In this document: positions 19,802 to 39,940 of the stretch, in pieces
Numbering within the stretch: position 1 is the stretch's first letter
Layout of the letters: the number at the start of each line of letters is the position of its first letter
Origin: Escherichia virus TH58
Sequence record: MT446423.1
Length of the DNA: 64,000 nt
Strand: one strand, 5' to 3'
Notes under the pieces: generated by a model
Told to the model about the DNA's origin: nothing
What the model saw: the letters and a program-made list of their open reading frames with translations, nothing else
Databases searched by the model: none
Position numbers and translations under genes: made by a program

Positions 19802-19831
19802 GTTTACAACTAAGTAGGACTATGATATAGT
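19802..19831 (+). promoter_or_regulatory. T4-type early promoter inside inverted repeat (PeSL-like)
   Basis: GTTTAC, TATAGT; arms TAGGACTA/TAGTCCTA flank the -10. Confidence 0.55.
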
Positions 19832-19857
19832 AGTCCTATCTAAAAGAGGATAACATC

Positions 19858-20121
19858 ATGAAATTTAAATTTTTCTACGCAAAACATAAAGTAACAGGCG
19901 AATTTGTTTCAATGTACAACACTGCAGATGACGAAGGGATGATTTATACCCATTTGGGACTATCTCATTGGGACTCAGACGTGCCTTATATGTCATCTGA
20001 AGCCGAAATAACTCGTCTGGTTAATGGACATATGAACGACCATTTTAGTGTTATTCTTTCTAAAGACCTTAAAGAGGTTATCAACAAAGGATATATGGAA
20101 CTCGCGGAAGTTGAGATATGA
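19858..20121 (+). CDS. hypothetical protein
   Basis: 87 aa ORF downstream of early promoter. Confidence 0.45.
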   Translation: MKFKFFYAKHKVTGEFVSMYNTADDEGMIYTHLGLSHWDSDVPYMSSEAEITRLVNGHMNDHFSVILSKDLKEVINKGYMELAEVEI

Positions 20122-20204
20122 GCTCTAAAATGTGGATCGGAATATGGTTGCTTAGTATCCCTATGATTTGTATAATATTTTCAATTGCATTGAGGTACTT
20201 ATGA
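20118..20204 (+). CDS. putative 28-aa single-TM peptide
   Basis: ATGA overlap with upstream stop; hydrophobic; not in ORF track. Confidence 0.25.
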   Translation: MSSKMWIGIWLLSIPMICIIFSIALRYL

Positions 20205-20311
20205 AAAATGCACTTCTTATTGTACTAAGAACAATTTGCGATACAGGTTTTTACATCGCATGTTCGTTCACCGGAACATGGTTGGCTTTAACATATTTTA
20301 ATGTAATTTAA
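20201..20311 (+). CDS. putative 36-aa hydrophobic peptide
   Basis: ATGA overlap with previous peptide; not in ORF track. Confidence 0.25.
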   Translation: MKNALLIVLRTICDTGFYIACSFTGTWLALTYFNVI

Positions 20312-20313
20312 TT

Positions 20314-20343
20314 GTTTACATCAAGGTAGGATTATGGTATAGT
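20314..20343 (+). promoter_or_regulatory. T4-type early promoter inside inverted repeat (PeSL-like)
   Basis: GTTTAC, TATAGT; arms GTAGGATTA/TAGTCCTAC. Confidence 0.55.
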
Positions 20344-20371
20344 AGTCCTACTGAAACATGAGGAACACAAA

Positions 20372-20572
20372 ATGGCTAAGCTTTTTAAAGATGTTGAAAT
20401 TGGTGAAAAATTTGTTCTGAATAATGGTCAGCAGCTTATTCGTGTAGCTTCTATCGCCGGACAAACTCATAACTGTATCGCCCCAACGTGTTGGACTCGA
20501 TTCTTTATTGAAGATGATACTGAATGTTTAACTGTTGAAGAGCTTTTTGAACGTTCTGATATGGCCGAATAA
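20372..20572 (+). CDS. hypothetical protein
   Basis: 66 aa ORF with GAGGAA RBS after early promoter. Confidence 0.45.
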   Translation: MAKLFKDVEIGEKFVLNNGQQLIRVASIAGQTHNCIAPTCWTRFFIEDDTECLTVEELFERSDMAE

Positions 20573-20574
20573 AA

Positions 20575-20604
20575 TTGTACAAACTCTTGAGAGCAGAGTA
20601 TAAT
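20575..20604 (+). promoter_or_regulatory. T4-type early promoter inside inverted repeat (PeSL-like)
   Basis: TTGTAC, TATAAT; arms GAGAGC/GCTCTC. Confidence 0.5.
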
Positions 20605-20648
20605 GCTCTCATGGATTACAAAAACATTAATCAATTGAGGAAATTAGC

Positions 20649-21095
20649 ATGTCCAAATATTTAACTCGTAAAGACCTTCTGGCAGTTGGCGGTGAAGTTG
20701 TTGCAGTAGTTCGTAATGGCGAATACGGTTCTGAAGTTTCTAAAGAGTTTCGTTCTCGTGAAGGTTTTTACTTCTTTGTTAAAGGTTCATCTGATTGGCG
20801 TCAAGTAGCAGCACGATTCTTTGTAGGACGTCAACGTTCTAAACAAGGGTTGGATGCAATTCTTTCTCACATTCGTCAAGGCCGTTCGCAACTAGCCCGT
20901 ACCATGGGCACTAACAATATTGAATATGATGTAATCTTTGTTGCAGCTAAGAACATGAAACCACTGACTACTGGTTATGGTAAAGGACAATTGGCTCTAG
21001 CATTCACTCGCAATCATACATCAGAATATCAAACACTCACTGAAATGAACCGTCTTCTGGCAGATAATTTCAAATTCATTCTGCAGAGTTACTAA
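20649..21095 (+). CDS. ndd: nucleoid disruption protein Ndd
   Basis: 148 aa; FYVGxQRSKQG...LSHIRQ.RSQLART...[12 protein letters not shown] motif block matches T4 Ndd. Confidence 0.8.
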
Positions 21096-21102
21096 TTTAT
21101 AC

Positions 21103-21136
21103 GGGCCTATTAAGTTGGCCCTTTAATTTATTTTTT
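21103..21136 (+). terminator. rho-independent terminator after ndd
   Basis: GGGCC..GGCCC stem plus T-rich tail. Confidence 0.5.
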
Positions 21137-21148
21137 GAGGTAATTAAA

Positions 21149-21295
21149 ATGGTAACATGGATTATTGCATTGCTGTGTTGGACGTTTTTATTCGTTAACA
21201 CTTTAGTTACAGGCGAAACAACAGTATTTCAACAGGCGGTGTCACAAGGTACTTTAGCGGTCTTAGCTCTTTTTAACGTATTAAAAGGCGAGTAA
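21149..21295 (+). CDS. small membrane protein (possibly Ac-like)
   Basis: 48 aa two-TM ORF absent from track; T4 ac lies between ndd and 52. Confidence 0.35.
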   Translation: MVTWIIALLCWTFLFVNTLVTGETTVFQQAVSQGTLAVLALFNVLKGE

Positions 21296-21435
21296 TGATT
21301 AAGAAAATCTTAGCAGGAGCCTTCGGGCTCTTGTTGTTGCTTATGGTTCTGTACTATGGTGTGATGTTTGGACTAATCCAAGTAGTGCTTTTCATTTCAG
21401 ATGTTATAATGACTATTCGTTCATTAATATGGTGA
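21295..21435 (+). CDS. small membrane protein
   Basis: 46 aa hydrophobic ORF; TAATG overlap with previous ORF. Confidence 0.3.
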   Translation: MIKKILAGAFGLLLLLMVLYYGVMFGLIQVVLFISDVIMTIRSLIW

Positions 21436-21439
21436 AAAT

Positions 21440-22765
21440 ATGCAATTGAATTCTCGTAATCTAAAAAGTATTATTGATAACGAAGCCTTAGCATATGCTA
21501 TGTACACCGTTGAAAACCGTGCAATCCCAAACATGATTGATGGATTTAAGCCGGTTCAACGTTTTGTAGTTCATCGTGCATTAGATTTGGCTCGTGGTAA
21601 TAAAGAAAAATTTCATAAACTTGCGTCAATTGCAGGTGGTGTAGCAGACCTTGGATATCATCATGGTGAAATCTCTGCGCAAGACGCAGGTGCTTTGATG
21701 GCTAATACTTGGAATAATAACTTTCCTCTGTTAGATGGTCAAGGAAACTTTGGTTCTAGAACAGTCCAAAAAGCTGCAGCATCTCGTTATATTTTTGCTC
21801 GTGTAAGTAAAAATTTCTATAACGTATATAAAGATACTGAATATGCTCCAGCTCATGAAGATAAAGAACACGTTCCACCAAAATTCTATCTTCCTATTAT
21901 TCCGACAGTTCTTTTGAATGGTGTCTCCGGTATTGCAACCGGTTATGCAACAAATATTCTGCCTCATAGTTTTAAATCGGTCAAAAAGGCGGTATTACAA
22001 GCTCTTCAAGGTAAAAATGTCACTAAGCCAAAAGTTGAATTCCCAGAATTCCGTGGTGAAGTGCATGAAGTTGATGGGCGTTATGAGATTCACGGAACAT
22101 ACAAGTTCACATCTCGTACTCAAATGCAGATAACTGAAATCCCATATAAATTCGACCGTGAAACGTATGTGAGTAAGGTTCTTGACCCGTTGGAAGACAA
22201 AGGTCTAATCTCATGGGAAGATGATTGTGGTGAACACGGCTTTGGGTTTAAGGTGAAGTTCCGTAAAGAGTACTCGCTTCCTGATGATGAAGAGCTACGT
22301 CATGAAAAAATCATGAAAGATTTTAGTCTCATCGAACGTCGCTCACAAAACATCACAGTGATTAATGAAAAGGGTAAATTAGCGGTCTACGATAACGTAG
22401 TGGACTTAATCAAAGATTTTGTTGAAGTCCGTAAGACTTACGTTCAGAAACGTATTGACAACAAAATCCTTGAATCTGAAAAAGCATTTAAACTGGCTTT
22501 TGCTAAGGCACACTTCATCAAAAAAGTTATCAGTGGCGAAATTGTGATTCAAGGCAAGACCCGTAAAGCTTTGACTGAAGAGCTAGCACAAATCGAAATG
22601 TACAAAGAACATGTCGATAAACTGGTGGGTCTTAACATCTTCCATATCACTTCTGACGAAGCACGTAAACTGGCAGAAGAAGCTAAAGCTAAGAAAGAAG
22701 AAAATGAGTATTGGAAGTCTACTGATGTTGTGACAGAGTACACTAAAGACTTGGAGGCGCTTTGA
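21440..22765 (+). CDS. 52: DNA topoisomerase II medium (GyrA-like) subunit gp52
   Basis: 441 aa; N-terminus with ENRAIPNMIDGFKPVQRF GyrA-like block. Confidence 0.9.
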   Translation: MQLNSRNLKSIIDNEALAYAMYTVENRAIPNMIDGFKPVQRFVVHRALDLARGNKEKFHKLASIAGGVADLGYHHGEISAQDAGALMANTWNNNFPLLDGQGNFGSRTVQKAAASRYIFARVSKNFYNVYKDTEYAPAHEDKEHVPPKFYLPIIPTVLLNGVSGIATGYATNILPHSFKSVKKAVLQALQGKNVTKPKVEFPEFRGEVHEVDGRYEIHGTYKFTSRTQMQITEIPYKFDRETYVSKVLDPLEDKGLISWEDDCGEHGFGFKVKFRKEYSLPDDEELRHEKIMKDFSLIERRSQNITVINEKGKLAVYDNVVDLIKDFVEVRKTYVQKRIDNKILESEKAFKLAFAKAHFIKKVISGEIVIQGKTRKALTEELAQIEMYKEHVDKLVGLNIFHITSDEARKLAEEAKAKKEENEYWKSTDVVTEYTKDLEAL

Positions 22766-39876: not shown

Positions 39877-39905
39877 TATACAATCAGATAGGGTTATGTT
39901 ATAGT
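39877..39905 (+). promoter_or_regulatory. possible early promoter inside inverted repeat
   Basis: weak -35 TATACA, TATAGT -10, arms ATAGGG/CCCTAT. Confidence 0.35.
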
Positions 39906-39940
39906 AGCCCTATCAAATCAAAAGTGAAGCGGAGAATAAA

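Follow-up and report, generated by a model that had tools for sequence, protein, structure and literature searches.

Mosigvirus copies of T4 ndd.6, ac and 52.1 among the hydrophobic mini-ORFs that surround ndd

The four hydrophobic mini-ORFs around ndd in Escherichia virus TH58 are real but ordinary, having already been annotated in relatives. Three of them are the ndd.6, ac and 52.1 copies of this phage, and the fourth is an orphan found in one genus only. We have analyzed a 64,000-nucleotide stretch of record MT446423.1 (the window), which comes from a Mosigvirus and thus from one of the T4-like coliphages in the RB69/JS09/HX01 group. Over the region of interest, 162 related records were matched, with Mosigvirus PNJ-6 being 98.5% identical. 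The gene order of the region compared is that of T4, and it is highly probable (roughly 0.85) that we are dealing with the T4 denB-to-52 accessory region in its Mosigvirus form, arranged in two translationally coupled chains (Table 1). This is a variable early-gene region, crowded with very small, putative inner-membrane peptides.

The original prediction had listed ORFs of 28, 36, 48 and 46 aa, with coordinates and lengths that proved exact. The overlaps that it described were also found, as ATGA between the 28- and 36-aa ORFs and as TAATG between the 48- and 46-aa ORFs; the junction of the upstream 87-aa ORF with the 28-aa ORF is likewise ATGA. The four ORFs had been called unannotated, a label that came from the 60-aa cut-off of the ORF track used and that did not hold, since the RefSeq genome of phage HX01 and related public genomes annotate all of them.

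Table 1. Features of the region between the first promoter/stem-loop and gene 52 (positions in the window)
Feature	Position	Strand	Remarks
PeSL-type early promoter/stem-loop 1	19802..19838	+	GTTTACA-N17-TATAGT; palindrome TAGGACTA..TAGTCCTA across -10; z -3.1
87-aa ORF, head of chain A	19858..20121	+	phrog_2390; stop overlaps ndd.6 start (ATGA)
Ndd.6 ortholog, 28-aa single-TM peptide	20118..20204	+	phrog_8851; T4 Ndd.6 similarity
36-aa hydrophobic ORF, Mosigvirus-only orphan	20201..20311	+	phrog_18561
PeSL-type early promoter/stem-loop 2	20314..20350	+	near-identical to PeSL 1; z -3.25; drives ndd.1
Ndd.1 ortholog, 66 aa, not hydrophobic	20372..20572	+	45% identity to T4 Ndd.1, E 7e-15; phrog_2183
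Promoter/stem-loop 5' of ndd	20576..20611	+	TGTACA-N17-TATAAT; palindrome GAGAGCA..TGCTCTC across -10; z -2.4
ndd (nucleoid disruption protein)	20649..21095	+	Pfam PF06591 E 4e-89; 59% identity to T4 Ndd
Terminator-type hairpin between ndd and ac	21103..21136	+	GGGCC-N9-GGCCC + T-run
Ac ortholog, 48 aa, acridine-sensitivity membrane protein	21149..21295	+	phrog_2501; T4 Ac similarity
gp52.1 ortholog, 46 aa (DUF7396)	21295..21435	+	overlaps ac stop; ends 4 nt before gene 52
UUCG-loop G+C-rich hairpin in 52.1 codons 6-14	21311..21336	+	-16.6 kcal/mol, z -2.35; U-rich tract after
Gene 52 (topoisomerase II medium subunit), last cistron of chain B	21440..22765	+	

Identity of the mini-ORFs

By analogy with the small T4 proteins Ac and Stp of the ndd-to-52 interval, it had been supposed that one of the mini-ORFs could be Ac-like. 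This was correct for ac, the 48-aa ORF being, as judged by its sequence, the Ac ortholog; stp is absent, with a search of the whole window returning chance-level matches only. The 48-aa ORF matched phrog_2501 with an E value of 1.1e-21, the same family matched by T4 Ac (gene ac, 51 aa, UniProt P18924; E 2.2e-25). In a direct BLASTP comparison the two proteins were 37% identical over 35 aa (E 2.4e-7), and sequences from UPEC01, JS98-like phages and STML-198 bridge them. The identity reached 56% with Ac of the Gaprivervirus UPEC01, and the window protein is nearer (51-61%) to an allele present in certain members of Tequatrovirus and Gaprivervirus (UPEC01, Sf22, pSs-1) than to T4 Ac. Relatives annotate the ORF as "acridine resistance."

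The position and predicted fold of the 48-aa ORF agreed with this assignment. It lies between ndd and 52.1, on the same strand and coupled to 52.1, much as T4 ac follows ndd (and stp) and overlaps the 52.1 start. Single-sequence AlphaFold2 gave helices at residues 2-21 and 24-46 (pLDDT 79), and the break between them, G22-E23, aligns with D26-A27 of T4 Ac, which is where the ESMfold description of the T4 protein places its own break (preprint 10.1101/2025.06.30.662393). Both proteins share the motif T..(E/A)(T/S)(T/S)VFxQAxxQG, including the glycine that is G38 in T4 and G34 in the window protein; in T4, G38R abolishes function and confers acriflavine resistance (preprint 10.1101/2025.06.30.662393). 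The differences from T4 Ac are the length (48 vs. 51 aa) and the junction with 52.1, which is TAATG or ATGA in place of the 8-nt overlap of T4.

The 46-aa and 28-aa ORFs are the named T4 genes 52.1 and ndd.6, which had gone unrecognized. The 46-aa ORF scored 78.7 bits against Pfam DUF7396 (cut-off 27; E 3.6e-22) over residues 1-46 of 46, and is 72% identical to T4 gp52.1 (46 aa, UniProt P18922; BLASTP E 6e-22), with which it shares its exact length, PHROG 3595, the distance of 4 nt to gene 52 and an embedded hairpin at the same 5' position. The two differ in the N-terminal third (AGAFGLLLLLMV vs. GYSLALAALLVA) and in the hairpin sequence encoded there. 52.1 was detected in 880 phage records by tblastn. 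It stands directly 5' of gene 52, and its start overlaps the small ORF before it, in the window and in T4, Dhakavirus-like, Gaprivervirus, Jiaodavirus and Gelderlandvirus loci. The predicted peptide is one continuous helix (residues 2-45, pLDDT 96, single-sequence AlphaFold2).

The 28-aa ORF matched phrog_8851 (E 1.9e-10), the family also matched by T4 Ndd.6 (28 aa, UniProt P39248), and is 50% identical to the latter over all 28 residues (BLASTP E 2e-10). The two have equal length and the shared motif SS..W...W...IP.IC..F, within which S2, S3, W6, W10, I14, P15, I17, C18 and F21 are invariant; ndd.6 was found in 730 phage records (tblastn). In both phages it is the first small ORF after denB and is ATGA-coupled to the next one. 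The window copy differs in being preceded by, and coupled to, the 87-aa ORF (pN/pS 0.07), which is missing from laboratory T4 and present in wild Tequatrovirus and JS98-like contigs, where its homologs are coupled to ndd.6 as well; it differs also in being followed by the 36-aa orphan and not by ndd.5. T4 and PHROG annotations label Ndd.6 an "outer membrane protein," and we have set this aside as a legacy localization prediction. The 28-aa peptide contains one hydrophobic stretch, and its sequence shows neither a signal-peptide cleavage motif nor a lipobox, the conserved Cys being preceded by I and not by G, A or S. On these features, a helix in the inner membrane is by far the likelier.

The 36-aa ORF gave full-length tblastn matches in 152 records, all of Mosigvirus type, and an exhaustive search among 1.84 billion representatives recovered its own cluster only. 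No T4 homolog was found for it among ndd.2, ndd.2a, ndd.3, ndd.4 and ndd.5 (best E 0.5). Pfam and NCBIfam gave no match for the 28-, 36- and 48-aa peptides.

Coupled chains, promoter/stem-loops and the 52.1 hairpin

Upstream of the first coupled chain (chain A) lies a PeSL, a composite of early promoter and stem-loop, and a second copy stands 512 bp further on. Both have TTTACA-N17-TATAGT and the stem TAGGAnTA/TAGTCCTA, and between them lie the 87-aa, ndd.6 and 36-aa ORFs; an additional copy, with compensatory changes in its stem, is present at 39889-39912. These elements fit the consensus reported for the T4/PST pair, TTTACW-N17-TAYWAT with the stem AGNA-loop-TCNT, by Comeau et al. 2014 (PMC4122927). 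Like the PeSLs of T4-type phages presented there and by Arbiol et al. 2010 (PMC2839356), they recur as near-identical tandem copies on either side of small variable ORFs, in a region that is hyperplastic, here the same ndd.x region for which PMC4122927 describes PeSL-mediated exchange, namely of the ndd.4/.5 cassette between T4 and PST. The particular copies of the window are absent from the descriptions in the accessible portions of these two papers.

Chain A would be transcribed from the PeSL at 19802, through the 87-aa ORF and Ndd.6 to the 36-aa peptide, with each start overlapping the preceding stop as ATGA, and would end at the second PeSL. As judged by its boundaries, it is a PeSL-bounded cassette of the type proposed to be exchanged by PeSL-PeSL recombination. 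The content between denB and ndd.1 varies between genera, and such an exchange would explain the differences among T4, JS98-like phages and Mosigvirus.

Between the two chains, the stretch separating ndd.1 from ndd is nearly invariant in Mosigvirus (1 of 76 sites varies). Some pipelines annotate a 29-aa ORF with a TTG start at 20575-20664, which we judged spurious because it has no family match and overlaps both the promoter/stem-loop and the start of ndd. The hairpin that follows ndd has retained its stem despite high local variability, with the loop inverted in HX01, and ARNold called a terminator there in phage ATK47.

Chain B would start past this hairpin and comprise Ac, gp52.1 and gene 52, with the gp52.1 start always overlapping the stop of the preceding small ORF, whichever ORF that is. 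No promoter was identified for chain B, and a literature search for a middle promoter of gene 52 returned nothing. Within 52.1, TTGCTTA at 21338-21344 followed by TATGGT was suggestive of a MotA-type middle promoter; this candidate was dropped because TGCTTNA-N10-12-TANNNT has no match there and eight sites elsewhere in the window.

None of 300 synonymous recodings reached the stability of the hairpin within 52.1, and this excess was found again in T4, JS98-like and VR20-like phages (0-2 of 300 recodings over the four genera). The hairpin would appear to be a nucleotide-level element, either a partial terminator or an mRNA-stability element, acting on gene 52 expression. An alternative reading is that 52.1 is mainly a translated leader, its peptide being secondary: ribosomes following closely behind the polymerase would block the hairpin and let transcription proceed into gene 52, so that topoisomerase expression would be tied to translation. 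The excess stability in four genera, despite differing hairpin sequences, would be compatible with such a leader. So would the invariance of the hairpin in 13 Mosigvirus sequences, save for one pair-strengthening change (G.U to G-C), the U-rich tract 3' of it, the ARNold terminator call at this site in ATK47 and the constant placement of the ORF 4-8 nt upstream of gene 52. Nevertheless, we consider the leader reading unlikely. Over its C-terminal two-thirds (LYYGVMFGLIQVVLFISDVIM..SL.W), gp52.1 shows strong purifying selection at the protein level (dN ~0.2, dS saturated), of which a mere leader would have no need. Moreover, Jiaodavirus has a marginal hairpin and Gelderlandvirus none, whereas both have kept the ORF, and the U-rich tract could be made up of plain Leu and Phe codons.

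Membrane character and possible functions

The GRAVY values of the 28-, 36-, 48- and 46-aa peptides were 1.53, 1.07, 1.14 and 1.81, and their best 19-residue Kyte-Doolittle windows reached 2.49, 1.56, 2.07 and 2.37, respectively. The 36-aa peptide lies just below 1.6, the value customarily taken as the limit for a transmembrane (TM) segment, which makes its TM call borderline; the other three exceed it.

T4 Ac is responsible for acridine accumulation in infected cells, ac mutants being resistant. Plasmid-expressed Ac sensitizes Escherichia coli to acriflavine, and the AcrAB-TolC efflux pump has been proposed as its target on the grounds of phenotype and structure prediction (preprint 10.1101/2025.06.30.662393). 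The identity between the two proteins is only 32-37%, and it is by analogy that the window Ac would act as T4 Ac does. Another functional analogy is offered by E. coli AcrZ, a membrane peptide of about 50 aa that belongs to the small single-pass regulators of transporters. AcrZ supports the pump, whereas the effect of Ac would be inhibition if the hypothetical Ac-AcrAB-TolC interaction holds, and the sequences of AcrZ and the window Ac have no detectable similarity.

For Ndd.6, gp52.1 and the 36-aa peptide, we propose that they would insert early into the inner membrane and act there as dispensable modulators of host membrane proteins. In T4, 52.1, ac and ndd.2-ndd.6 belong to the early class by their transcripts (PMC9697503, Table S2), and the sa-delta-9 deletion, which removes 52.1 through denB, is viable and loses the stimulation of phosphatidylglycerol synthesis (PMC6071114). 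The same properties could be expected of membrane-damaging effectors, that is, toxin-like, lysis-timing or superinfection-exclusion peptides with no specific host-protein target. Such effectors would also be small, hydrophobic, early and dispensable, the adjoining rIIB and rIIA concern membrane integrity, and the sa-delta-9 effect is on lipid synthesis. In addition, Ac sensitized E. coli to ampicillin as well as to acriflavine (10.1101/2025.06.30.662393), which a general permeability defect would fit equally, as in Silver's older permeability model. We regard membrane damage as quite unlikely: in Pfam, NCBIfam and PHROGs, the peptides had no match that would relate them to a known holin, Imm/Sp or a type I toxin, and what the preprint reports is drug sensitization on Ac induction, with no drug-free growth comparison (10.1101/2025.06.30.662393). 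The sequences themselves are equally compatible with damage and with the modulation of host proteins that we favor.

Coding status and significance

The comparative check proposed for the mini-ORFs supported their coding status. Several genera of the Tevenvirinae have conserved the frames of Ndd.6, Ac and gp52.1, and of 12 Mosigvirus relatives examined that span the 36-aa frame, 11 have it intact. In-frame pN/pS, computed from 12-13 closely related sequences and pooled over non-independent pairs, was 0.12, 0.28, 0.15 and 0.35 for the 28-, 36-, 48- and 46-aa ORFs, in each case below that of both other frames (2.0 and 4.7 for the 36-aa ORF). Between genera, codon position 2 was the most conserved and position 3 the least (for 52.1 against T4, identities of 76, 85 and 46% at positions 1, 2 and 3), and the amino-acid conservation of Ndd.6, Ac and gp52.1 persisted where synonymous sites are saturated. 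The stop-start overlaps were kept in every Mosigvirus sequence examined and persist across genera, even with a TTG start or a different upstream ORF; Ndd.6, Ac and gp52.1 have also kept their lengths and start positions.

Same-strand ATG-ORFs of at least 28 aa gave equal coverage of the gap 20100-20371 in 3% of dinucleotide shuffles and of the gap 21096-21445 in 0.25%. The 36- and 48-aa ORFs have strong Shine-Dalgarno pairing (GAGGT, -7.0 kcal/mol); that of the 28- and 46-aa ORFs is weak (-4.1 and -4.2 kcal/mol), as would be expected of downstream cistrons that termination-reinitiation supplies with ribosomes. A literature search found no ribosome profiling of T4-like phages. In a T4 LC-MS time course, 52.1, Ac, Stp and Ndd.2-Ndd.6 went undetected, which is expected of tiny hydrophobic peptides but is still an absence.

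These proteomic data would also suit the idea that the mini-ORFs, or a number of them, are spurious, being chance hydrophobic frames in T-rich DNA whose conservation comes from promoters, terminators or recent common ancestry. Hydrophobicity alone is weak evidence in such a T-rich genome, because a GRAVY of at least 1.0 is reached by 12.5% of the 28-60-aa ORFs that the window contains in its six frames, and a hydrophobic 59-aa alternative frame within gene 52 is likewise "conserved" across genera. The 36-aa ORF, in particular, is restricted to one genus and variable, several of its substitutions being radical (G16 to V or W), and its copy in phage PECP20 is frameshifted. Yet spurious frames are highly improbable given the protein conservation of Ndd.6, Ac and gp52.1 at saturated synonymous sites, the cross-genus retention of their lengths, starts and coupling, and the definition of T4 ac as a gene by genetics, and, for the 36-aa ORF, given its pN/pS contrast between frames, its integrity in 11 of 12 relatives, its strong ribosome-binding site and the existence of an allele with a 3-nt in-frame deletion. 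Overall, cross-genus conservation, the codon-position pattern of substitution and conserved coupling support, at the level of sequence comparison, the coding status of the mini-ORFs, more weakly so for the 36-aa orphan.

A more speculative and rather doubtful proposal is that the ndd-to-52 interval works as a conserved "socket." It would consist of a fixed gp52.1, with a translation-sensitive terminator hairpin gating the topoisomerase subunit, and of an upstream slot for interchangeable small membrane peptides, each with a different target in the host membrane or its defenses. Depending on the lineage, the slot may be filled by the T4-type Ac, the Mosigvirus/UPEC01-type Ac, a 53-54-aa GVWxPGP peptide, a 57-60-aa peptide or Stp.

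With ndd.6, ac and 52.1 named in T4, PHROG and Pfam families at hand and RefSeq relatives annotated, the mini-ORFs leave little to discover as genes. What they illustrate is that a 60-aa ORF cut-off conceals a substantial conserved class of early membrane peptides in T4-type phages. If the block of drug efflux proves true, Ac would be a natural efflux-pump inhibitor of which several divergent alleles are available for comparison.

Identity and annotation of the mini-ORFs

Apart from one orphan specific to the genus, the 36-aa ORF, which public records already list as a "hypothetical protein", the features around ndd are genes already known from a well-studied phage family. The coordinates and lengths of the four mini-ORFs were exactly those of the original prediction. 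Three of them shared a PHROG family (phrog_) with a T4 protein, and the 46-aa ORF scored 78.7 bits against Pfam DUF7396 (cut-off 27). The guess that one would be Ac-like was borne out by the 48-aa ORF, through its T4 Ac match and common family. No counterpart of stp was found in the whole window.

The T4 order is denB, ndd.6, ndd.5, ndd.4, ndd.3, ndd.2a, ndd.2, ndd.1, ndd, stp, ac, 52.1, 52; here, the + strand carries rIIB, denB, 87-aa ORF, 28-aa ORF, 36-aa ORF, ndd.1 (66 aa), ndd, 48-aa ORF, 46-aa ORF and gene 52. Unlike the window, laboratory T4 lacks the 87-aa ORF between denB and ndd.6, whereas environmental Tequatrovirus contigs (L015-L019, about 1280-1546) have, like the window, a copy (67% identical) that is ATGA-coupled to ndd.6.

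Features of the denB-to-52 region and a further stem-loop copy
Feature	Position	Strand	Description	T4 counterpart (BLASTP)	Family
PeSL-type element 1	19802-19838		sigma-70/T4-early-type promoter, -10 within palindrome		
87-aa ORF	19858-20121	+	upstream of 28-aa ORF		
28-aa ORF	20118-20204	+	peptide MSSKMWIGIWLLSIPMICIIFSIALRYL	Ndd.6 (50% over all 28 residues, E 2e-10)	phrog_8851
36-aa ORF	20201-20311	+		none (best E 0.5)	phrog_18561 only
PeSL-type element 2	20314-20350		near-identical to 19802-19838		
PeSL-type element 3	20576-20611		early promoter, -10 within palindrome		
Terminator-type hairpin	21103-21136		between ndd and the ac, 52.1, gene 52 chain		
48-aa ORF	21149-21295	+		Ac (37%, E 2e-7)	phrog_2501
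46-aa ORF	21295-21435	+	stop 4 nt ahead of gene 52 (21440)	gp52.1 (72%, E 6e-22)	phrog_3595; DUF7396
UUCG-loop hairpin	21311-21336	+	11-bp, G+C-rich, U-rich tract after; codons 6-14 of 46-aa ORF		
Further PeSL-type copy	39889-39912		compensatory stem changes, TAGGG..CCCTA vs TAGGA..TCCTA		

The segment matched 162 T4-like Mosigvirus records; its identity to Escherichia phage PNJ-6 was 98.5%. The description of the mini-ORFs as unannotated held only for the 60-aa track on which it was based: RefSeq phage HX01 annotates all four, and other records two or three. HX01 names the 48-aa ORF "Ac acridine resistance protein" and the 28-aa ORF "outer membrane protein", a label that does not fit Ndd.6, a 28-aa single helix. 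ATK47 labels the 48- and 46-aa ORFs as Ac-like and gp52.1-like, with two predicted terminators besides. The public annotation of phage SCS57 is wrong in naming ndd "naphthalene 1,2-dioxygenase", and the product names of phage JQD51 are off by one gene, Ac being named "nucleoid disruption protein". The 29-aa TTG-start ORF (20575-20664) annotated by some pipelines (NHEP11, TU01) is probably an over-call: it has no family hit, and it overlaps the start of ndd as well as its promoter/stem-loop.

Coding evidence from relatives

All four peptides are hydrophobic (GRAVY 1.07 to 1.81), with only the 36-aa peptide falling just under the classical Kyte-Doolittle membrane-segment threshold of 1.6. In single-sequence AlphaFold2 models, the 46-aa peptide is a single long helix (pLDDT 96) and the 48-aa peptide folds as two helices (pLDDT 79). 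Shuffled sequence reached equal ORF coverage in 3% (first gap) and 0.25% (second gap) of trials, and 12.5% of 28-60-aa ORFs have a GRAVY of at least 1.0. Since hydrophobic short ORFs are not uncommon in this T-rich DNA, composition by itself proves nothing, and the coding case therefore depends on comparison with relatives.

We have compared Tequatrovirus, JS98-like and VR20-like phages, Gaprivervirus UPEC01, Jiaodavirus and Gelderlandvirus. The frames of Ndd.6, Ac and gp52.1 were conserved between genera, with the motifs SS..W...W...IP.IC..F, T..(E/A)(T/S)(T/S)V(F).Q...Q(G) and LYYGVMFGLIQVVLFISDVIM..SL.W, respectively, kept while synonymous sites were saturated. Between gp52.1 and T4, codon positions 1/2/3 were identical at 76/85/46% (dN ~0.2). 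The tblastn matches came from 730 phage records for Ndd.6, 880 for gp52.1 and 284 for window-type Ac. Within Mosigvirus, the in-frame pN/pS was 0.12, 0.28, 0.15 and 0.35 for the 28-, 36-, 48- and 46-aa ORFs, each below both alternative frames, these being small-number figures from 12-13 sequences with non-independent pairs.

The start-stop overlaps (ATGA at 87-aa/28-aa and 28-aa/36-aa, TAATG at 48-aa/46-aa) were confirmed and were identical in all Mosigvirus sequences examined. Across genera, coupling was kept even with a TTG start of Ndd.6 (TTGA overlap), and that to 52.1 even when the upstream ORF encodes another peptide. Ribosome-binding sites were strong for the 48-aa ORF, where the chain is entered afresh, and for the internally entered 36-aa ORF, and weak for the 28- and 46-aa ORFs.

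Among 1.84 billion representative proteins, the 36-aa ORF has one cluster only, and the 152 records in which it occurs are all Mosigvirus-type. It shows several non-conservative substitutions, a 35-aa allele through an in-frame 3-nt deletion and, solely in phage PECP20 (1301-1407), a frameshifting 1-nt deletion. Most likely it is a genuine gene under weak constraint. An in-frame stop (W38*) was seen in the 87-aa ORF of a metagenomic Mosigvirus contig (L006, about 1710-1970). This stop and the PECP20 frameshift could be sequencing errors or true accessory-gene decay.

Functions of Ac and its neighbors

T4 ac mutants are acriflavine-resistant. In a 2025 preprint (10.1101/2025.06.30.662393), an ac deletion phage can plate on acriflavine, plasmid-borne Ac makes E. 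coli acriflavine-sensitive, and G38R is inactive. The block of AcrAB-TolC by Ac is only a hypothesis of that preprint, and the assumption was repeated in a 2026 PNAS paper. The Ac of the window has a glycine (G34) aligned with T4 G38 and a helix break aligned with that of T4 Ac. Because both are kept, we infer that it would have the same activity.

In T4, the 52.1, ac, stp and ndd.2-ndd.6 transcripts are early, and none of the corresponding peptides was detected by LC-MS (PMC9697503, Table S2). The sa-delta-9 deletion, which takes out 52.1 through denB, leaves T4 viable and abolishes the stimulation of phosphatidylglycerol synthesis (PMC6071114).

Hairpins and cassette architecture

Across four genera, the position of the hairpin inside 52.1 is conserved and its sequence is not: T4, JS98-like and VR20-like phages (L004, L010, L013, L028) form it from other nucleotides encoding other amino acids. 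Of 300 synonymous recodings, 298-300 folded less stably than the native hairpin in these three groups, and the hairpin of the window was likewise far more stable than recodings of its peptide; it was marginal in Jiaodavirus, absent from Gelderlandvirus and unchanged among Mosigvirus save one G.U to G-C. ATK47 already carries an ARNold terminator call on it. We read the hairpin as a nucleotide-level element (partial terminator or RNA-stability element) atop real coding sequence; it may also be a leader/attenuator ahead of gene 52. A MotA-type promoter at this site was not supported. Elsewhere, the MotA-box-plus-(-10) pattern TGCTTNA-N10-12-TANNNT had 8 matches in the window against 3.5 expected on both strands, and the seven on the + strand (3987, 12256, 12463, 36977, 40941, 49831, 53109) are likely middle promoters of TH58.

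The post-ndd hairpin lies where the region varies most (12 of 53 sites), with its stem preserved. Its loop in HX01 is the reverse complement of the loop in the other phages, suggestive of an inversion of the hairpin. Between ndd and 52.1, Tevenvirinae (L008, L010, L012, L013, L028, L029, L030) have a polymorphic slot in which Ac of two sequence types, a GVW(A/V)PGP two-helix peptide of 53-54 aa, another of 57-60 aa (MR.FF.MGYLF..) and Stp, duplicated in some loci, occur; only 52.1 is constant.

Every gap between coupled chains holds a promoter with its -10 inside a palindrome (7-11 bp in the four PeSL-type elements). These elements match T4-type promoter-early stem-loops (PeSLs) in the TTTACW-N17-TAYWAT promoter consensus and the AGNA-loop-TCNT stem. 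PeSLs have been proposed to shuffle small-ORF cassettes, as in the ndd.4/.5 exchange between T4 and PST (PMC4122927). Elements 1 and 2 flank the 87-aa ORF, ndd.6 and the 36-aa ORF, making this first chain a cassette bounded by PeSLs, which fits the lineage-specific content of the denB-to-ndd.1 interval.
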